From a virus (lineage: Duplodnaviria > Caudoviricetes), in IMG/VR virus record IMGVR_UViG_3300046030_000054, positions 11,952 through 75,951 of that record: DNA of 64,000 bases; one strand, given 5' to 3'. Under the pieces are notes generated by a model. The model saw only the letters and a list, made by a program, of their open reading frames with translations. It ran no database searches and had not been told where the DNA came from. A program made the translations under genes and the position numbers. Of this stretch, positions 11,785 through 63,675 are shown one piece after another. Each line of letters opens with the position of its first letter. The stretch's first letter is position 1.

Positions 11785-13010
11785 TGAAATTTATCAAGAA
11801 AAAAATTGCTGATCTAATTCCTGCCGATTACAATCCGCGTAAAGATCTCAAGCCTGGCGATCCTGATTACGAAAAGTTAAAACGTTCAATGAAAGAATTC
11901 GGTTATGTCGATCCAATCATCTGGAACCAACAAACTGGTCGCATAGTTGGAGGACACCAGCGGTTAAAGATTCTCCAGGATGAAGGGATCGAAGAAGCTG
12001 AGTGCGTTGTTGTTGACCTTAATGAAGAAAAAGAAAAAGCGTTGAATATTGCGCTCAACAAGATCAGTGGTGATTGGGATAAGGATAAGTTAGCCCTCCT
12101 AATGACTGACTTACAAGCCAGTGATTTAGATGTTTCATTAACGGGATTTGACGAGAATGAGATCTCCGACCTTCTTGGCACGGCTGACGACACGCATGAT
12201 GATGACTTTGACGTTGATAGCGAATTGGATAAACCGACCTTTTCAAAGCCTGGTGACTTATGGCACTTAGGTAAACACACTTTATTATGTGGTGACGCTA
12301 CTAAAACAGAAAGCTACCAGAAATTACTGGGTGATCATAAGGTCAACCTAGTATTAACCGATCCTCCATACAATGTCGATTACTCTAGCAAAGCTGGCAA
12401 GATCAAGAATGATCATCAAGCCGATGACAAGTTCTACCAGTTTCTGCTTGCTGCTTTTCAAAATATGAATCAAGCAATGGCTAACGATGCCAGCATCTAT
12501 GTATTTCACGCCGATACGGAAGGCCTTAACTTCCGCCGTGCTTTCCAAGATGCTGGTTTTTATTTATCCGGTTGCTGTATCTGGAAGAAGCAATCATTAG
12601 TACTTGGTCGCTCTCCCTATCAGTGGCAACATGAACCCGTACTCTATGGATGGAAGAAAGATGGCAAACACGAATGGTACACCGGGCGAAAGGAATCCAC
12701 CATCTGGGAATTTGATCGCCCAAAGCAGAGTAAGGAACACCCAACGATGAAACCAATCCCACTATTAGCCTATCCAATCATGAATTCCACCATGTCCAAC
12801 TGTACCGTTCTCGATCCATTCGGTGGTTCCGGTTCAACTCTGATTGCATGCGAGCAAACTAATCGGATTTGTAACATGATGGAACTCGATCCTAAATATT
12901 GCGATGTGATTGTGCAACGTTATATTGAACAGGTTGGTTCAAGCAAAAACGTTAGTGTGGAAAGAAATGGTAAAACTATTCTTTACAGCAAAGTAAAAAA
13001 GCCGGCTTAA
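11784..13010 (+). CDS. ParB-like domain + N6/N4 DNA methyltransferase
   Basis: ADYNPR and VGGHQR (ParB-like); TDPPY, HPTMKP, DPFGGSGST (MTase). Confidence 0.9.
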   Translation: MKFIKKKIADLIPADYNPRKDLKPGDPDYEKLKRSMKEFGYVDPIIWNQQTGRIVGGHQRLKILQDEGIEEAECVVVDLNEEKEKALNIALNKISGDWDKDKLALLMTDLQASDLDVSLTGFDENEISDLLGTADDTHDDDFDVDSELDKPTFSKPGDLWHLGKHTLLCGDATKTESYQKLLGDHKVNLVLTDPPYNVDYSSKAGKIKNDHQADDKFYQFLLAAFQNMNQAMANDASIYVFHADTEGLNFRRAFQDAGFYLSGCCIWKKQSLVLGRSPYQWQHEPVLYGWKKDGKHEWYTGRKESTIWEFDRPKQSKEHPTMKPIPLLAYPIMNSTMSNCTVLDPFGGSGSTLIACEQTNRICNMMELDPKYCDVIVQRYIEQVGSSKNVSVERNGKTILYSKVKKPA

Positions 13011-20725: not shown

Positions 20726-20877
20726 GTTGTTTCTATGATAAAATGCTATTAGGTCGGACTTGATGGGTCGCTCCCATCATGAAAGACTTAGCAGTTAACG
20801 TGGCTACACACCCCTCAAATAATCTGAACTGTGGAGGTGAGAGTCATGTTATTTAGGAAAGGACTGGAGGAGCAGCA

Positions 20878-20973
20878 ATTAATGCCGCCTTAGTTATCGT
20901 GGCAATCGGCCAGCTAGTCATTGACTGTGCTAAAGCCTACGCGATAATAAAAAAAGCTAACCATAACGGTTAG
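20878..20973 (+). CDS. Putative type I toxin-like hydrophobic peptide (31 codons from ATT; start uncertain)
   Basis: INAALVIVAIGQLVIDCAKAYAIIKKANHNG*; in this span B differs only by synonymous changes and four mostly conservative substitutions. Confidence 0.65.
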   Translation: MNAALVIVAIGQLVIDCAKAYAIIKKANHNG

Positions 20974-21038
20974 CTATCCTTCAGTCACCTGAACTGCGTT
21001 TGAGGGTAACGAGATGCCGCTCGTTGCTCTCTTTTCAT
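20949..21038 (-). ncRNA. Putative antisense antitoxin sRNA (~90 nt)
   Basis: Minus-strand promoter TTGAAA-17-TATCAT (21045-21073); minus-strand terminator agctaacc/ggttagct plus U-tract overlapping the peptide 3' end. Confidence 0.6.
21002..21035 (+). terminator. Terminator of the peptide mRNA
   Basis: 12-bp stem gagggtaacgag/ctcgttgctctc (two G-U pairs valid only on + strand) plus T-tract. Confidence 0.65.
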
Positions 21039-21044
21039 TTACTA

Positions 21045-21073
21045 ATGATATCTGATATATTTTGATTTTTCAA
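21045..21073 (-). promoter_or_regulatory. SigmaA promoter of the antisense RNA
   Basis: TTGAAA-17-TATCAT; hexamers identical in B while the spacer has diverged. Confidence 0.7.
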
Positions 21074-21115
21074 CTTTTAGCTGGCAGTTTTCTGTCAGCT
21101 TTTTTCTTTTACCAT

Positions 21116-21162: not shown

Positions 21163-21402
21163 ATGGTAAAAAAAGTACAACCAGTGACTCATCAACCACT
21201 AATAGCAACAAGTACGAATATTAGTTCAGAGCAATTATTGAACGATTTGCATTATCAACAAGCAAAACAGATCATCCAGACTCTACTTAATAAAGGCCTT
21301 ATTTCGCCCACCGAATTTAAAGACATTGATTCCTTAAATAAACAATCATTTCCACCATTATTAGGGCCCGGAAACGTTGATACATCAAGCCTCCAGAGCT
21401 AA
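21163..21402 (+). CDS. SHOCT-like small protein (possible recombination accessory factor)
   Basis: LLNKGLISPTEFKDID pattern; immediately precedes the recombinases in both elements. Confidence 0.7.
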   Translation: MVKKVQPVTHQPLIATSTNISSEQLLNDLHYQQAKQIIQTLLNKGLISPTEFKDIDSLNKQSFPPLLGPGNVDTSSLQS

Positions 21403-21431
21403 CATACCACACTGACGAAAGGAGGGTTGTC

Positions 21432-23093
21432 ATGTCAACCATTACTAAAATCCAAAGCTACCACCGTAATGTCAAGCAACTCCGTGTAGCAGCTTATTGT
21501 CGAGTTTCGACGGACAATATTGAACAGCTGGAGAGTCTTGAAAATCAACGTGCCCATTATCAAAAGTACATTAACAACCACCCTAATTGGGAGCTGGCTA
21601 AGATCTACTATGATGAAGGAATCTCAGGCACCAAGATGACCAAGCGGAACGCCTTAAAAGAATTACTAACTGATTGTCATAATCACCGGATTGACCTCGT
21701 GGTGACCAAATCAATTAGCCGTTTGTCACGAAATACAACTGATTGTTTGCAGATTGTCCGGGAATTACAGCAATTGAATATTCCAATTATCTTTGAGAAA
21801 GAGCATATCAATACTGGAGCAATGGCCAGTGAGTTATTTCTATCGATTCTTAGCAGTATTGCCCAGGATGAATCCCACTCAACTGCCGGAAATCTACGCT
21901 GGGCAATCAGGAAACGTTTTGCTAGTGGCAAATTCCATGTATCCTCAGCACCCTATGGATATTCAATTGAGGATGGCAACTTAGTTATCAACCATACTGA
22001 AGCAAAGACTGTACGACAAATCTTTCAACGATTTCTAAGTGGAACATCAGCCAGTCGGATTGCTAAAGGATTGAACCATAAACACGTAGCAACAAAGCGT
22101 GGTGGACAATGGCGAAGCAACACCGTGATTAACATTTTACGAAACAGTAATTACACCGGTGATATGCTCTGCCAGAAGACTTATAGTGATGATCAATATC
22201 ACCGTCATTTTAACCAAGGTGAACTCACCCAATACTTAATTGAGGATCATCACCCTAGTTTAGTTAACCACGAAACTTTTAACAGAGTTCAAGTTCTGCT
22301 TAAAGAAGCGGTCCAAAAGTGCCATATTGAAACTGGCAGCCATAAGTACCAACACCACTACTTATTTTCTGGGAAAATCACTTGTGGCAATTGTGGCACT
22401 ATTTTTAAGCGGCAAACACGTCCCAATAAAATTTGCTGGGCTTGTCAAAGACATCTAAGTTCCGCTAAGCAATGTCCTGTTAAAGCAGTAACTGAAGTAA
22501 GCCTAGAAGCAGCTTTCTGCAACATGATGAATAAACTCATTTACAGTAGGAAATTCTTATTACAGCCATTGTTAGCAAATTTACAAGTTCAAGCTAACAG
22601 TGATACCAACGGTCAGCTAAGTTCATTGGTCAATCAGGTTAAGGCAAATGACCGCAAAGCAGAAACGCTAACCGAATTGATGCAATCAGGATTGCTGGAT
22701 AAAGCCATCTATGTAAATCAAACGGCTCAGCTCGAACAGGATACCTACCAATGCCGCGAAAAGATTAAACAGTTTAATAGCAACAATACTGATTCGGCAA
22801 ATAATTTTGAAAACGTGCGAACCCTGCTTCATTGGTGTCAACAAGGTCAAAAACTGTCAGGCTTTAATAAAGCCCCATTTCAGGACTTCGTTCAACAAAT
22901 TGTAGTGAACAGTCCAAAAGAGGCGGTTTTCAAACTGAAATGCGGGTTGAGATTAACTGAGAAGTTAACCAAAGCAGCTTGCCTTGATGAACACTTTTAC
23001 CGTGGGGTAATCCGCCAACGTTTCAGCGAACCAATTCGGCAAGCAGAATACTTGTACAGCATTATCGAAAGTGAAGGTGATTTAATTGGGTAA
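21432..23093 (+). CDS. Large serine recombinase 1
   Basis: AAYCRVST catalytic motif, TKSISRLSRN, recombinase domain, zinc ribbon CGNCG..WAC, coiled coil. Confidence 0.92.
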   Translation: MSTITKIQSYHRNVKQLRVAAYCRVSTDNIEQLESLENQRAHYQKYINNHPNWELAKIYYDEGISGTKMTKRNALKELLTDCHNHRIDLVVTKSISRLSRNTTDCLQIVRELQQLNIPIIFEKEHINTGAMASELFLSILSSIAQDESHSTAGNLRWAIRKRFASGKFHVSSAPYGYSIEDGNLVINHTEAKTVRQIFQRFLSGTSASRIAKGLNHKHVATKRGGQWRSNTVINILRNSNYTGDMLCQKTYSDDQYHRHFNQGELTQYLIEDHHPSLVNHETFNRVQVLLKEAVQKCHIETGSHKYQHHYLFSGKITCGNCGTIFKRQTRPNKICWACQRHLSSAKQCPVKAVTEVSLEAAFCNMMNKLIYSRKFLLQPLLANLQVQANSDTNGQLSSLVNQVKANDRKAETLTELMQSGLLDKAIYVNQTAQLEQDTYQCREKIKQFNSNNTDSANNFENVRTLLHWCQQGQKLSGFNKAPFQDFVQQIVVNSPKEAVFKLKCGLRLTEKLTKAACLDEHFYRGVIRQRFSEPIRQAEYLYSIIESEGDLIG

Positions 23094-24663
23094 AGTACGC
23101 ATTATTCCCGCCCATCAGCAAAAAGGAAACAGTGTCCATCATCCACGTAGTCCACAATCTTTTGGAAAGCTTCGAGTGGCTGCATACTGCCGGGTTTCGA
23201 CCGATTACGATGAGCAGGCCAGTTCTTACGAAACTCAAGTAGATCATTACAAAGAACTAATTCAAAAGGAGCCATCCTGGGAATTTGCAGGTATTTATGC
23301 CGATGATGGGATCTCCGGAACCAATACCAAAAAACGGGAACAATTCAATAAAATGATTGCAGCCTGTAAAGTCGGTAAGATTGACCTGATCGTTACCAAA
23401 TCAATTAGCCGATTTGCCCGGAATACCATCGACTGTTTGAAATATATCCGTGACTTAAAAGCTATCAATGTTGCAATCTTCTTTGAAAAAGAAAATATCA
23501 ACACCATGGATGCCAAAGGTGAAGTTTTGATTACCATCATGGCTTCCCTTGCTCAACAAGAAAGTGAGTCCTTATCGCAAAACGTCAAGATGGGGATTCA
23601 ATATCGTTACCAACAAGGGAAAGTTTTCGTGAACCATAATCACTTTCTGGGTTATACCAAGGATGCTCAAGGTAACTTGGTGATTGAACCAGAAGAAGCA
23701 AAGGTCATTAAGCGTATCTTCTATAGCTACCTAAACGGAATGACGATGAAGCAAATAGCTGATTCTCTTAAAGCAGATGGTATTTTAACTGGTGGCAAAA
23801 CAAAGAATTGGCGTTCTAGCAGCGTGGCCAAAATCCTGAAGAATGAAAAATATATGGGTGATGCTCTATTACAAAAGACTTACACTGTGGACTTTCTGAA
23901 CAAAAAGCGCGTAAAGAACGAAGGAATCATGCCACAGTACTATGTGGAGAACGACCACCCAGCGATTATTCCTAAATCAGTGTTCATGCAAGTCCAGCAA
24001 ATTATCAAACAGCGACGTAACGGAATCACGACTAAGAACGGCAAGCACCGGCGAATTAACGGAAAATACTGCTTTTCTCAAAAAGTATTCTGCGGTAAAT
24101 GCGGTGATATCTTGCAACGGAACATGTGGTATCGACCGGAAAAAGTGGCAGTCTGGCGATGTGCAAGCCGCGTAAGACGCAATAAGACTGGCCGGCGATG
24201 CATGATTCGAAACGTCAAAGAACCATTGCTGAAGGAAACCACCGTTGAAGCATTCAACCAGCTCATTGAAGGGCATGAGCTGGTCAGTAAACAAATCAAA
24301 GCTAACATCATGAAAGTCATTAAAAACTCCAAAGGTCCAACACTTGATCAAATCGACCAACAGCTGGAAGAAGTGCAAATGAAGTTGATTCAAGCTGCCA
24401 ACCAGCATCAAGACTGCGACGCGCTAACCCAGCAAATTATGGACCTTCGCAAACAAAAAGAAAAAGTACAGAGTCGGGAAACTAATCAACAAGCCAAACT
24501 ACACAACCTTGATGAAATCAACAAATTAGTCGAATTGCACAAGTATGGCTTAGTTGACTTTGATGAACAATTGGTTCGTCGCTTGGTAGAAAAAATCACC
24601 ATCTTCCAACGCTACATGGAATTCACGTTCAAAGATGGTGAAGTAATTAGAGTTAATATGTGA
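23086..24663 (+). CDS. Large serine recombinase 2
   Basis: AAYCRVST, TKSISRFARN, NEKYMGDALLQKT, CGKCG..WRC. Confidence 0.92.
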   Translation: MGKVRIIPAHQQKGNSVHHPRSPQSFGKLRVAAYCRVSTDYDEQASSYETQVDHYKELIQKEPSWEFAGIYADDGISGTNTKKREQFNKMIAACKVGKIDLIVTKSISRFARNTIDCLKYIRDLKAINVAIFFEKENINTMDAKGEVLITIMASLAQQESESLSQNVKMGIQYRYQQGKVFVNHNHFLGYTKDAQGNLVIEPEEAKVIKRIFYSYLNGMTMKQIADSLKADGILTGGKTKNWRSSSVAKILKNEKYMGDALLQKTYTVDFLNKKRVKNEGIMPQYYVENDHPAIIPKSVFMQVQQIIKQRRNGITTKNGKHRRINGKYCFSQKVFCGKCGDILQRNMWYRPEKVAVWRCASRVRRNKTGRRCMIRNVKEPLLKETTVEAFNQLIEGHELVSKQIKANIMKVIKNSKGPTLDQIDQQLEEVQMKLIQAANQHQDCDALTQQIMDLRKQKEKVQSRETNQQAKLHNLDEINKLVELHKYGLVDFDEQLVRRLVEKITIFQRYMEFTFKDGEVIRVNM

Positions 24664-59733: not shown

Positions 59734-59888
59734 GTTGTTTCTATGGTAAAATATCATCAGGTCTGAAATGGTGGGTCGCTCCCAACATGGAAGGCTTAGT
59801 GATAAGGACATGGTCGCATCACCCTTCAACTATTCCTGATAACGCGAGGTGATGACTATGTTAATTTGGAAAGAATCGAGGACTCGGC

Positions 59889-59984
59889 ATTACTGCCGCC
59901 ATAGTTATCGTGGCAGTCGGCCAGTTGATCATTGACTGCGCCAAAGCCTACGCGATAATAAAAAAAGCCAACCATAACGGTTAG
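59889..59984 (+). CDS. Putative type I toxin-like peptide, copy B
   Basis: ITAAIVIVAVGQLIIDCAKAYAIIKKANHNG*. Confidence 0.65.
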   Translation: MTAAIVIVAVGQLIIDCAKAYAIIKKANHNG

Positions 59985-60050
59985 CTTCATCCTCGATCAT
60001 TCCTGATCACGCTTGAGGGTAACGAGATGCAGCTCGTTGCTCTCTTTTCT
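59960..60050 (-). ncRNA. Putative antisense antitoxin sRNA, copy B
   Basis: Promoter TTGAAA-17-TATCAT at 60057-60085; terminator stem preserved via a G-U pair. Confidence 0.6.
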
Positions 60051-60128
60051 TTTATTATGATAGCTGATCTATCCTGTTTTTTCAACTTTTTAGCTGGCAG
60101 TTTTCTGTCAGCTTTTTTCTTTTACCAT

Positions 60129-60174: not shown

Positions 60175-60414
60175 ATGACCAAACAAGTTAAAGAAGTAAC
60201 TCATCAACCACTGACGTCGATCAATACAACAATTTCGCAAAAGCAATTGCTAAATGACTTACATTATCGACAATCCAAACAGATCATCCAACATTTGCTG
60301 GATCAAGGGTTGATTTCGGCTGATCAATTTCAAAAGATTGACCAATTAAACAAGCAGTCCTTTCCACCACTATATAGTCCTGAATGTGTTGCTACATCAA
60401 CGATCCAGAGCTAA
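60175..60414 (+). CDS. SHOCT-like protein
   Basis: Homologue of 21163..21402. Confidence 0.7.
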   Translation: MTKQVKEVTHQPLTSINTTISQKQLLNDLHYRQSKQIIQHLLDQGLISADQFQKIDQLNKQSFPPLYSPECVATSTIQS

Positions 60415-60443
60415 CATACCACACTGACGAAAGGAGGTTTGCC

Positions 60444-62105
60444 ATGTCGACCATTACTAAAATTCAAGGTTATCACAATGATGTCAAGCAACTACGTGTG
60501 GCAGCCTACTGCCGGGTTTCTACTGACAATGTCGAACAGTTGGAAAGTCTGCAAAATCAGCGTGAGCATTATCAGGAGTACATTAGTCACCATCCCAATT
60601 GGCAACTTGCCAAAATCTACTATGATGAAGGCATTTCTGGCACTAAATTAACGAAACGGAATGCTTTAAAAGAATTACTGGGTGATTGTCGCAATCACCG
60701 GATTGACCTGATAGTAACCAAATCCATCAGTCGCTTATCACGAAATACGACTGATTGTTTACAAATTGTCCGTGAATTGCAACAGCTGAACATTCCGATC
60801 ATTTTTGAAAAGGAACATCTTAATACTGGTGCAATGGCGAGTGAACTATTCTTGTCCATTCTCAGTAGTATCGCTCAGGATGAATCGCGCTCCACAGCTG
60901 GCAACTTACGCTGGGCAATTCGGCAGCGCTTTGCCAGTGGTGAATTTAGAGTATCTTCTGCACCTTACGGTTATAAGCTTCGAGATGGCAACTTATTAAT
61001 CTATCCAGCAGAAGCACGGACCGTGAAACATATTTTCCATAAATTTCTGACTGGCACTTCTGCCACGCAAATTGCTAAAGAGCTAAATGGACATCAAGTT
61101 GCTACCCAACGTGGCGGTCACTGGCGCAGTAATACGGTCCTTAACATTCTACGAAACATCAACTACACCGGTGACATGCTGTGCCAGAAAACTTATCGTG
61201 ATGATCAATATCATCGCCATTTCAACCATGGTGAACTAGCCCAATACCTAATTGAAAACCATCATCCAAGTTTGATCAGTCACCAAGCCTTCGATCAAGC
61301 TCAGAAAATAATTAAGGAAAATGCGCAAAAGCGCCACATTGAAGTCGGTACTCACAAGTATCAGCAACATTATCCTTTCTCAGGAAAAATCATCTGTGGA
61401 TATTGCAGTACCACCTTTAAGCGACAAACCAGACCTAATAAAATCTGTTGGGCATGTCAAAAGCACTTAAAGTCTGCAAAGCAATGCCCGATTAAAGCAA
61501 TTAGTGAAGAAAGTTTGGAAGCCGCCTTCTGCAGCATGATGAATAAGTTAATCTTCAGCCAGAAGTTCCTACTGCAACCATTTCTTGAAGAACTACAAAA
61601 TCAAGCTAATAGCAATTCCAATGGTGAATTAGGAAAATTGGCTGAGCAAATCAAAGCTAACGACCATAAGGCCGAAACGCTAACCCGATTGATGCAAACT
61701 GGGCTGCTCGACAAGGCCATTTATGTTAACCAAACGGCCAAACTAGAACAAGACGCTTATCAATGCCGACAAAAGATCAAACTACTGAATAGTCAAAATA
61801 CTAATTCAGCCAACGATTTTGAAGAAGTCAGGTCTTTACTGCGTTGGTGCCAGAAAGGGCAAACGCTAACCAGCTTTAATCCCAACTTATTTCAAACTTT
61901 TGCACAGCAAATCATTGTCAACGATCCGACTGAAGTGATCTTTAAACTCAAATGTGCCTTGGAATTAACTGAAAAACTAACCAAGAAAGCCGCAGTCTAT
62001 CAACAATTCTACCGTGGCATCATTAAGCAACGGTTCAATGAACCAATCAAGCAAGCCGAATATTTGTACAGCATTATCGAAAGTGAAGGTGATTTAATTG
62101 GGTAA
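60444..62105 (+). CDS. Large serine recombinase 1
   Basis: Homologue of 21432..23093; start MSTITK after aaggagg. Confidence 0.92.
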   Translation: MSTITKIQGYHNDVKQLRVAAYCRVSTDNVEQLESLQNQREHYQEYISHHPNWQLAKIYYDEGISGTKLTKRNALKELLGDCRNHRIDLIVTKSISRLSRNTTDCLQIVRELQQLNIPIIFEKEHLNTGAMASELFLSILSSIAQDESRSTAGNLRWAIRQRFASGEFRVSSAPYGYKLRDGNLLIYPAEARTVKHIFHKFLTGTSATQIAKELNGHQVATQRGGHWRSNTVLNILRNINYTGDMLCQKTYRDDQYHRHFNHGELAQYLIENHHPSLISHQAFDQAQKIIKENAQKRHIEVGTHKYQQHYPFSGKIICGYCSTTFKRQTRPNKICWACQKHLKSAKQCPIKAISEESLEAAFCSMMNKLIFSQKFLLQPFLEELQNQANSNSNGELGKLAEQIKANDHKAETLTRLMQTGLLDKAIYVNQTAKLEQDAYQCRQKIKLLNSQNTNSANDFEEVRSLLRWCQKGQTLTSFNPNLFQTFAQQIIVNDPTEVIFKLKCALELTEKLTKKAAVYQQFYRGIIKQRFNEPIKQAEYLYSIIESEGDLIG

Positions 62106-63675
62106 AGTACACATTATCCCAGCCCACCAGCAAAAAGGAAATACTATTCATCAGCGGCGTAGTCAACATCCATTTGACCAACTCCGAGTGGCCGCTTATT
62201 GCCGGGTTTCGACCGACTATGATGAGCAAGCTAGCTCCTACGAAACTCAGGTAGCTCACTACAAAGAGCTAATTCAAAAGAAACCAACCTGGGAATTTGC
62301 AGGTATCTATGCTGATGATGGAATCTCCGGAACCAACACCAAGAAACGGGAACAATTCAATAAAATGATTGCGGCCTGTAAAGCCGGTAAAATTGACTTA
62401 ATTGTCACCAAGTCAATTAGCCGATTTGCTCGAAATACTATTGATTGCCTGAAGTATATCCGGGACTTAAAAGCTATCAATGTGGCGATCTTCTTTGAAA
62501 AGGAAAACATCAACACCATGGACGCCAAGGGTGAAGTTCTGATTACCATCATGGCTTCCCTTGCTCAACAAGAAAGTGAGTCCTTATCACAAAACGTCAA
62601 GATGGGGATTCAGTACCGCTATCAGCAAGGAAAAGTATTCGTGAATCATAATCACTTCCTGGGCTATACCAAGGATGCTCAAGGTAACTTGGTAATTGAA
62701 CCGGAAGAAGCCAAGGTTATTAAACGGATCTTCTATAGCTACTTAAATGGAATGAGCATGAAGCAAATCGCTGATTCACTCAAAGCTGATGGTATTCTGA
62801 CTGGTGGCAAAACAAAAAATTGGCGCTCTAGCAGCGTGGCTAAAATCCTAAAAAATGAAAAATACATTGGTGATGCCCTTTTACAGAAGACTTACACCGT
62901 TGATTTTCTTAATAAAAAACGAGTGAAGAATGAAGGCATCATGCCACAATACTACGTGGAGAATGATCACCCGGCGATTATTCCCAAGTCTGTTTTCATG
63001 CAAGTACAGCAGATCATCAAACAGCGCCGAAATGGTATCACTACTAAGAACGGTAAGCATAGGCGCCTTAACGGTAAATATTGCTTCTCTCAAAAAATAT
63101 TTTGTGGTAAGTGCGGTGATATCATGCAGCGAAACATGTGGTATCGACCAGAGAAAGTAGCAGTCTGGCGCTGCGCCATTCGGATAAGGAGAAGTAAAAC
63201 TGGTCGCCGCTGCATGATTCGAAACGTTAAAGAACCCCTTCTAAAAGAAGCTACTATTGAGGCTTTTAACCAGCTCATTGAAGGGCATGAGTTAGCCAAC
63301 AAACAAATCAAAGCCAACATCATGAAGGTCATCGAGAACTCCAAAGGACCAACACTCGATCAAATCAACCAACAGTTGGAAGAGGTACAGATGAAGCTCA
63401 TCCAGGCTGCCAACCAGCATCAAGACTGCGACGCACTAACCCAGCAAATCATGGACCTGCGGAAGCAAAAAGAAAAAGTCCAAAGTCGTGAAACTGATCA
63501 ACAAGCCAAACTACACAGCCTTGATGAAATTAACAAATTAGTCGAATTGCACAAGTATGGCTTAGTTGACTTTGATGAACAATTGGTTCGTCGCTTGGTA
63601 GAAAAAATCACCATCTTCCAACGCTACATGGAGTTCACGTTCAAAGATGGTGAAGTTATCAGAGTAAATAAATGA
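62098..63675 (+). CDS. Large serine recombinase 2
   Basis: Homologue of 23086..24663. Confidence 0.92.
   Translation: MGKVHIIPAHQQKGNTIHQRRSQHPFDQLRVAAYCRVSTDYDEQASSYETQVAHYKELIQKKPTWEFAGIYADDGISGTNTKKREQFNKMIAACKAGKIDLIVTKSISRFARNTIDCLKYIRDLKAINVAIFFEKENINTMDAKGEVLITIMASLAQQESESLSQNVKMGIQYRYQQGKVFVNHNHFLGYTKDAQGNLVIEPEEAKVIKRIFYSYLNGMSMKQIADSLKADGILTGGKTKNWRSSSVAKILKNEKYIGDALLQKTYTVDFLNKKRVKNEGIMPQYYVENDHPAIIPKSVFMQVQQIIKQRRNGITTKNGKHRRLNGKYCFSQKIFCGKCGDIMQRNMWYRPEKVAVWRCAIRIRRSKTGRRCMIRNVKEPLLKEATIEAFNQLIEGHELANKQIKANIMKVIENSKGPTLDQINQQLEEVQMKLIQAANQHQDCDALTQQIMDLRKQKEKVQSRETDQQAKLHSLDEINKLVELHKYGLVDFDEQLVRRLVEKITIFQRYMEFTFKDGEVIRVNK

Follow-up and report, generated by a model that had tools for sequence, protein, structure and literature searches.

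A probable type I toxin-antitoxin module from a Lactobacillaceae family not named before, with a proposed leader-dependent translational control

Within a stretch of 64,000 nucleotides (nt) of the IMG/VR provirus record IMGVR_UViG_3300046030_000054 (positions 11,952 to 75,951; the whole stretch is referred to here as the window) we find two copies of a short module, at 20736-21073 (copy A) and 59744-60085 (copy B), in which the gene for a small hydrophobic peptide faces a predicted antisense RNA gene. Judged by its sequence in these copies and in their relatives, the locus is real, conserved and unannotated, and probably represents a type I toxin-antitoxin family previously unnamed. As the best explanation we favour, with good but by no means complete confidence, a type I toxin-antitoxin module of a Lactobacillaceae family that would operate through the control mechanism proposed below. 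A preliminary description of the window had already read the locus as type I toxin-antitoxin-like, and both its anatomy and the comparison with relatives support that reading. The same description regarded the locus as element-specific; instead, it is Lactobacillaceae-wide and found also on chromosomes and plasmids. The two copies in the window are paralogous parts of two related phage-like elements, each extending over about 24 kb of it and 75-88% identical.

A degenerate codon pattern search recovered eight IMG/VR contigs with the module in the same slot, and the pattern also matched ten genomes of Limosilactobacillus, Lactobacillus and Ligilactobacillus. A 31-position peptide profile matched 60 of 401 Lactobacillaceae genomes (~15%, about one in seven), in which multiple or tandem copies are common. 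Chromosomal copies are flanked by ordinary housekeeping genes, and further copies lie in unannotated stretches of Ligilactobacillus salivarius megaplasmids (H1-H6, H10) and of Lactobacillus amylovorus plasmids. In a hidden Markov model search of 1.84 billion representative proteins only 38 clusters matched the toxin family, and a word-indexed search of 5.8 billion proteins gave a single match, annotated 'hypothetical'. All members whose source name was checked (ten of the 38 clusters and the word-search protein) are 'hypothetical' or unnamed. Neither peptide nor leader matched Pfam (for the peptide at E<=1), NCBIfam or PHROGs, the ESM Atlas returned only unnamed clusters below 0.9, and blastn and tblastn against phage records found no match. 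In Rfam no family reached its gathering threshold; at E<=10 the best was frnS, with 33 bits against a threshold of 60 bits, which we take as a chance resemblance of two terminators. A literature search of incomplete coverage, which took in the Fst and T1TAdb papers, found no description of the family, and an earlier description elsewhere is possible. The statement that the peptide family was not recognised thus held: no library names the peptide, and the Fst signature failed.

The toxin frame, its leader and the second ribosome-binding site

The preliminary description had noted a 31-codon open reading frame (ORF), hydrophobic and then basic, with synonymous changes between the copies. This ORF, here called the toxin ORF, is present on the + strand in both (A, 20878-20973, with 31 codons at 20878-20970 and TAG; B, 59889-59984, with 31 codons at 59889-59981 and TAG), and the changes between A and B are synonymous or conservative (CTA/TTG, TGT/TGC, GCT/GCC, I/V, L/I). 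Among 24 gap-free members the ratio of non-synonymous to synonymous changes (pN/pS) is 0.44 in the toxin frame compared to 1.16 and 0.96 in the other two, and the entropy at codon position 3 is 1.30, where positions 1 and 2 give 0.73 and 0.56. The peptide is hydrophobic throughout residues 1-24 (mean Kyte-Doolittle 1.85-2.0 in A and B, 1.5-2.1 among relatives), with a single hydrophobic helix that is followed by a basic tail, ending KKANHNG in copy A. With its 31 codons and basic tail the gene has the form expected of type I toxins, hydrophobic membrane-type peptides of fewer than 60 amino acids. The family signature is the C-terminus A-x-AYAI(I/T)KKAN(H/R). Its codons also encode the antisense terminator on the opposite strand, the KK codons giving the U-run and the ANH codons the stem, and this double use accounts for how little the signature varies.

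A point absent from the preliminary description is that the 31-codon frame lacks a canonical start: there is no ATG, GTG or TTG at its beginning, and the ATG behind a strong ribosome-binding site (RBS) lies in another frame. The toxin frame is instead taken to begin with ATT, at 20878 in A and at 59889 in B, in each case 7 nt beyond another Shine-Dalgarno (SD) sequence, SD2 (GGAGGAG at 20866-72 in A, GAGGA at 59878-82 in B, both + strand). At the homologous position relatives carry ATT, ATC, TTG, CTG, GTG or ATG, each behind an SD-like sequence, and four gene-caller-predicted proteins (P0002, P0004, P0007 and P0009) have their Met exactly at the proposed start. The conserved peptide frame cannot reach further upstream because of a 1-nt indel between A and B that falls between AUG1, the leader start, and the ATT. 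A GTG at codon 8 was ruled out as the toxin start, there being no SD ahead of it.

The ATG behind the strong RBS opens a leader ORF that overlaps the beginning of the toxin gene. In copy A it occupies 20846-20893 (+ strand), with SD1 (GGAGGTG), a 6-nt gap, ATG, 15 codons and TAG; in copy B SD1 lies at 59846-51 and the leader runs from its ATG at 59858 to 59935 (+ strand, 25 codons, +1 frame). The toxin frame relative to the leader ATG is -1 in A and +1 in B, a result of the 1-nt indel between ATG and ATT. The leader of A reads across SD2 and the toxin start, its stop beginning 13 nt after the ATT; that of B stops 44 nt past the toxin start. Among 31 distinct loci about 28 have the leader in another frame than the toxin, yet the leader frame is open from its start to SD2 in all 30 loci compared, where shuffled sequences predict 16.7 and the other two frames give 10 and 14. 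The leader stop falls within 1-13 nt of the toxin start in many members. It overlaps the ATG start of the toxin in L017_2492 (ATGA), L019 has the same ATGA overlap with an ATG that is in frame and slightly within the toxin frame, and the L040 leader ends 4 nt past the toxin's GTG. Loci L030 and L014 have their first start codon in frame with the toxin, and here forms of 41-42 and of about 31 residues might both be made. These in-frame members also retain SD2.

SD2 of copy A is predicted to pair with a segment of the 3' untranslated region (UTR) just past the antisense terminator (GACUGGAGGA with UCCUUCAGUC; RNAduplex -17.4 kcal/mol). This anti-SD2, TCCTTCAGTC at 20977-20986 (+ strand), pairs with GACTGGAGGA (20862-71) and so covers SD2, and the pairing lies within the minimum free energy (MFE) fold of the mRNA. 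Copy B, with its anti-SD2 at 59990-97 (+ strand), makes the pairing with different letters (ATCGAGGA with TCCTCGAT, i.e. AUCGAGGA with UCCUCGAU; RNAduplex -17.3 kcal/mol), and in L028 and L030 the letters differ yet again. Across 28 loci the SD2/anti-SD2 energy averages -13.8 kcal/mol for cognate and -10.0 kcal/mol for non-cognate partners, and none of 20000 permutations reached the observed value. We therefore argue, from three independent leader/SD2 signals, that SD2 is probably a working, regulated RBS and that the leader is probably translated.

The antisense gene, its repeats and the toxin mRNA

Convergent to the toxin gene lies the TTGAAA-17-TATCAT promoter of the preliminary description, which we see by eye and with a consensus scanner on the minus strand at 21073..21045 in A (10/12 matches) and 60085..60057 in B. 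The RNA of about 90 nt that had been proposed to start here (20948-21038, minus strand, in copy A) would end in a hairpin over the 3' end of the toxin ORF, and minus-strand terminators are indeed predicted at 20975..20955 (A), overlapping the final toxin codons and followed by U7, and at 59988..59964 (B). Of 28 distinct related loci that were scanned, 25 have a minus-strand promoter with 8-11/12 matches at a fixed distance, +89 to +98 nt, counted from the stop of the toxin. The predicted RNA of copy A consists of a 5' hairpin, a single-stranded linker with the complement of repeat copy 2 and an anti-SD CCCUC, the terminator hairpin and U7 (fold -26.4 kcal/mol, z = -2.4). The gene for this RNA extends over the entire 3' UTR and into the toxin gene, of which it takes in the final 26 nt, namely the stop, seven codons and some of an eighth. 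An antisense gene of the kind that defines type I systems is thereby predicted, capable of base pairing with the toxin mRNA through a perfect 3' overlap and at a 5' site.

The + strand terminator that had been claimed is found at 21002-31 in A, where a 12-bp stem and T-run extend to 21041 and the complement forms the 5' hairpin of the antisense RNA, and at 60015-44 in B, again with a T-run after it. The hairpin over the toxin stop has a T-run on the minus strand only, and the + strand terminator lies 30 nt further on. Because the terminators are two one-way structures and not one shared, the RNAs would overlap by about 90 nt. An alignment of 25 relatives has compensatory changes in 10 of 18 antisense hairpin pairs. 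Read on the minus strand, the hairpin over the toxin stop contains 12 G-U cells compared to 2 A-C cells, and this tolerance of G-U identifies it as the antisense terminator. For the hairpin adjoining the antisense promoter the minus strand has 19 A-C cells (G-U on the + strand) compared to 5 G-U, identifying this hairpin, with the + strand T-run that follows, as the toxin mRNA terminator, selected on the + strand.

Transcription of the toxin gene would start from the extended -10 element, which is present as described and was read from the sequence at 20736-20744 in A (TGATAAAAT) and 59744-59752 in B (TGGTAAAAT), both + strand. The element is kept as TATG[A/G/C]TAAAAT across 13 related elements. 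The promoter of copy A has no good -35, which is why the consensus scanner did not list it. With its ends placed from promoter and terminator, the toxin mRNA of copy A would start near 20751 and reach the T-run of the + strand terminator (20751-21041, + strand, ~290 nt).

The repeat that had been reported before the upstream RBS and again inside the antisense region is present in both copies on the + strand, as ctgaactg at 20824-20831 and 20989-96 in A and as attcctgat[a/c]acgc at 59832-45 and 59999-60012 in B. Repeat copy 1 stands directly 5' of SD1 and is the predicted target of the antisense RNA. Since about 0.9 such repeated 8-mers are expected by chance in 340 nt, the repeat of copy A alone proves nothing. 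Among the relatives, a segment of 8-14 nt abutting SD1 on its 5' side is found again inside the antisense gene, immediately 5' of the + strand terminator, in 25 distinct versions. The mean local score is 7.9 for cognate and 4.8 for non-cognate pairs, and none of 20000 permutations over these 25 loci reached the observed sum, which bears out the claim that both repeat copies change together. The similarity runs on through SD1 towards AUG1, which allows the antisense RNA to cover the repeat together with SD1 and some of the spacer. Computed duplexes between antisense RNA and mRNA 5' end have -34.2 kcal/mol for A with A and -40.8 kcal/mol for B with B, and -27.6 and -22.4 kcal/mol for the crosses. 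The non-cognate duplexes are weaker but not negligible, and the model supports a partial, incomplete discrimination between the antisense RNAs of the two neighbouring elements.

The 291-nt toxin mRNA deduced for copy A folds far more stably than its shuffles (MFE -113.4 kcal/mol compared to -78.0 ± 4.9, z = -7.27). Its 5' part forms a stem-loop over SD1 and AUG1 (20796-20851, + strand), given by the MFE fold and by a covariance model, in which the anti-SD CACCCCTC (20809-16; RNA CACCCCUC) pairs with GGAGGTG (20833-39) and hides SD1. In the outer stem an upstream CAUGG-like arm pairs with AUG1, and repeat copy 1 is exposed in the loop. This hairpin is the MFE fold in nearly all of 25 relatives, and the covariance model (R1) finds it in 37 copies. 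Of the alignment cells 82.6% are paired, compared to 34-50% when the partners are slid, and eight of 11 outer pairs have compensatory changes. The three pairs over the AUG have none, their AUG letters being essentially fixed while the partners vary, as would be expected were the AUG a start codon as well. With an unguided MAFFT alignment of the 5' region, RNAalifold detected no more than the four SD/anti-SD pairs, and the covariance-model alignment was needed.

Proposed mechanism, alternative explanations and relation to known systems

With both RBSs sequestered, the full-length mRNA would be translationally silent. Ribosomes on the leader would unfold SD2, or re-initiate at SD2/AUU, and so permit toxin synthesis, in a manner akin to mok-hok coupling. 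Leader initiation would be blocked when the antisense RNA pairs with the repeat and SD1, which is how RNA II acts in par, and the perfect 3' duplex would probably also expose the mRNA to decay by RNase III, the fate seen in txpA/ratA and bsrG/SR4. Were the element lost, or the labile antisense RNA exhausted, the peptide would be made and the membrane damaged, which would stabilise the element or abort infection. In its complete form the proposal is a two-step translational lock. Here the antisense RNA and 5' hairpin would control a translated leader (a mok analogue), leader ribosomes would be needed to open the 3'-UTR-masked second RBS with its non-AUG (AUU/UUG/CUG) toxin start, and the antisense terminator would fix the toxin's C-terminal motif, the whole belonging to a new type I family of Gram-positives. 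We offer this tentatively, as a scheme somewhat more apt to fail in one of its parts than to hold entire. If true, the lock combines par, hok and txpA logic in one 340-nt module that is systematically missed by gene callers.

Several points weigh against this interpretation. The perfect 3' complement of the antisense RNA in the mRNA, which seems to read on to the + strand terminator, should out-compete the imperfect 5' site, so that the 5' repeat may have a role only where the mRNA is processed or a second antisense molecule binds. SD2 would also be freed once antisense RNA binds the 3' UTR, an effect that by itself looks activating. An mRNA trimmed to the hairpin over the stop codon, or two bound antisense molecules, would resolve the competition. 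Simple termination-reinitiation fails for some members, because the copy B leader extends 44 nt beyond the toxin start. The start at ATT is one that we infer, and initiation at AUU is rare and weak. Finally, neutral decay does occur in the family, as three relatives (L012, L020 and L018) are clearly decayed.

The peptide could instead be a small membrane protein with a non-toxic job under antisense RNA control, for instance a membrane stress peptide or one that modulates the holin/lysin beside it, and not an addiction or abortive toxin. This would fit the position of the module directly behind lysis genes in the window, the weak start codon, from which low normal levels would be expected, and the fact that many type I 'toxins' are harmful only when overexpressed (PMC7472228). 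Most relatives, however, adjoin unrelated housekeeping genes or lie on plasmids or in tandem arrays, without lysis genes nearby, and a double translation lock together with an antisense RNA is the pattern of peptides that must not be made. We regard a non-toxic job as unlikely, and a role linked to the lysis genes was rejected on the genomic context of the relatives. Copies A and B might also be decaying relics of a frameshifted toxin gene that once started at the SD1-ATG, the RNA features surviving only as terminators between lysis and recombinase operons. Both copies have the ATG out of frame, each in a different direction, decayed relatives exist, and three relatives do have an ATG/TTG in frame, giving 41-42 residues (L014, L030). 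Yet the out-of-frame layout is the rule among the distinct loci (~28/31), and the toxin frame is intact, hydrophobic and under purifying selection, the same 31 codons recurring in elements from several species and in the eight related contigs of IMG/VR. The three leader/SD2 signals also count against decay. SD2, a start-like codon and a covarying anti-SD2 are conserved, the leader is open across SD2 in 30/30 loci, and the in-frame members retain SD2. Relic status is thus distinctly improbable.

A further explanation has the toxin made from the SD1-AUG by programmed ribosomal frameshifting into its frame, with the internal SD-like sequence as a stimulator as in prfB or dnaX. An SD-like GGAGG stands in the leader just ahead of the frame change, an AAA-G codon in B could slip +1 into the toxin frame, and leader N-terminal residues are loosely alike in in-frame and out-of-frame members (L030 compared to L028). 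The shift needed would nevertheless be -1 at some loci and +1 at others, even between the close copies A and B, and there is no shared slippery site (L017 examined). The ATGA overlaps of L017_2492 and L019 and the L040 stop 4 nt past GTG are, moreover, the classic coupling arrangement. Frameshifting, rejected on its inconsistent direction and the missing slippery site, is very improbable indeed. We give next to no credence to the idea that neither a functional peptide nor a small RNA exists and that a terminator pair and chance promoter-like hexamers happen to lie between two operons. AT-rich intergenic DNA readily gives promoter-like matches, and the scanner found 4 where 1.5 were expected, but the composite architecture recurs in 60/401 genomes and in unrelated contexts, with coding-type substitution, compensatory pairs and covarying repeats, so that the comparative data already contradict this explanation.

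Of the known systems we considered par (Fst/RNA I-RNA II) of Enterococcus faecalis pAD1 and its Gram-positive relatives, which include Lpt of L. rhamnosus (PMC7472228). There the direct repeats make the small RNA complementary to the toxin initiation region, and locus-variable repeats are thought to give specificity (PMC7472228). The par/Fst-type likeness suggested earlier stands in part. Convergent promoters and RNAs, direct repeats that vary between loci (and covary in 25 distinct loci here) and a 5' stem-loop hiding an SD are common to both, as is occurrence on Firmicutes plasmids, phage-like elements and chromosomes (PMC7472228); the hidden SD is here the leader's SD1 and not the toxin's own. 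The single, shared bidirectional terminator of par is absent; in its place the module has its two one-way terminators, and the full overlap of ~90 nt takes in the 3' codons of the toxin. The antisense RNA would, in addition, target the RBS of the leader ORF and not that of the toxin, whose non-AUG start lies behind a second SD. The Fst/Ldr signature (PF13955; PXXXG(C) in the helix, conserved Trp ahead of the charged tail) gave no Pfam match at E<=1, the toxin peptide has no Pro or PXXXG, and Trp occurs in a minority of the family only (AYWIIKK in L033 and L037). Membership of the Fst family was rejected, hhalign against 12 true Lactobacillaceae Fst peptides giving a probability of 0.4%. True Fst loci are found in 25 of 151 Lactobacillaceae genomes and look different from the present module. 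In one genome, G134, toxin A is present as an exact copy together with two canonical loci of Fst (PF13955), both families thus sharing a cell.

In hok, the full-length mRNA is kept inactive by long-range pairing of its 5' and 3' ends. The module may resemble hok/mok/sok of plasmid R1 and Ldr/Rdl in having a leader frame that overlaps the toxin start and whose initiation site would be the antisense target, and it would resemble hok in the predicted inactivity of the full-length mRNA through pairing with its 3' end. The leader stays open across SD2 at every one of the 30 loci, and the antisense RNA is complementary to the leader SD, features that may correspond to the leader ORFs of Hok and Ldr in the organisation of type I families (PMC8594479). 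The fold-back of hok, in contrast, joins the 5' and 3' ends, whereas here the 3' UTR pairs with the internal SD2. Hok is also a Gram-negative system, with Sok encoded at the 5' end of the mRNA, and the antisense gene here lies at the 3' end. The peptide is unrelated to the Hok family (no Pfam match), and coupling in the present module is our deduction.

The txpA/ratA, bsrG/SR4, bsrE/SR5 and yonT/SR6 pairs of Bacillus subtilis and SprG1/SprF1 of Staphylococcus aureus are likewise built of convergent genes, with RNAs that overlap at the 3' ends and share the final part of the toxin ORF. An overlap of this txpA/ratA and bsrG/SR4 type, of ~90 nt, is predicted for the module, and residence in prophages and prophage-like elements is common to both. 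SR4 promotes decay and alters structure at the RBS (PMC3834814). SprG1 gives two peptides from two in-frame starts (PMC10579593), as the in-frame members L014 and L030 may also do. Searches for homology to TxpA, BsrG, BsrE and YonT gave no match in Pfam, NCBIfam or PHROGs, and no Rfam antitoxin family reached its threshold. The txpA/ratA-type systems have unrelated toxin families, and they lack a leader ORF, a direct-repeat target at the 5' end and an internal start other than AUG. By analogy, then, the module shares features with par (repeats, 5' stem-loop, convergent layout) and with txpA (3' overlap, prophage setting), and may share the leader and 3'-end lock of hok.

The module is also present on tail-less phage-derived elements, and is a candidate for how these 40-kb elements and the L. 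salivarius and L. amylovorus plasmids persist in their hosts, which may help where elements are to be cured from, or stabilised in, strains used as food cultures or probiotics. As a compact natural case of a proposed leader-gated, non-AUG-initiated toxin in a Gram-positive, it represents a design so far tied to hok/mok in enterobacteria. The 25 distinct repeat variants are natural material on antitoxin RNA cross-talk when elements adjoin, as A and B do.

Genomic setting and variation among the copies

In the window the module has lysis genes on one side (a holin in A and B, and a GH25/CW_7 lysin in A). On its other side, in each element, come a small gene with a SHOCT_2 domain and then a pair of adjoining genes for large serine recombinases (21163-24660 and 60176-63675). 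Just past the antisense promoter a second + strand terminator (AGCTGGCAG..CTGTCAGCT and T-run) is located at 21079-21100 and 60092-60113, and the ~60 nt after it, reaching the SHOCT_2 gene, are near-identical in A and B. Only element-borne copies have this second terminator, and chromosomal relatives do not. Inside the toxin ORF, a + strand promoter-like motif TTGACT-16-GATAAT (10/12) stands at 20921-20948 in A and 59932-59959 in B. It arises from the conserved IDCAKAYAII codons and may be a by-product of these, or may drive a short sense RNA starting at the hairpin.

Among the plasmid-borne copies, that at 1380-1640 of L. amylovorus GRL1118 plasmid p2 (L071) is a full module with no annotated feature over it. 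The repeat pair of plasmid-borne copies differs by a 1-nt indel (CCTGATGTTACG compared to CCTGAGTTACG). Some relatives are decayed: a 27-nt in-frame deletion removes the helix in L012 (2170-2256), the ORF is truncated in L020 (4287-4328), a frameshift lies in an A-run in L018 (3-143), and the N-terminus is lost in L044. The RNA elements are still recognisable in L012 and L020.

Tandem arrays are known for ldr, ibs and other type I loci. In the present family, arrays of 2-5 copies occur in some chromosomes (L028 and L030; G011:C1:2255173-2256166). In Lactobacillus corticis (L013, 6830-7460) two complete modules, one B-like and one A-like, are arranged head to tail, the second module's toxin promoter lying ~20 nt downstream of the first module's antisense promoter. 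The repeat pairs of these two modules match less (6-8 nt) than those of single-copy loci.

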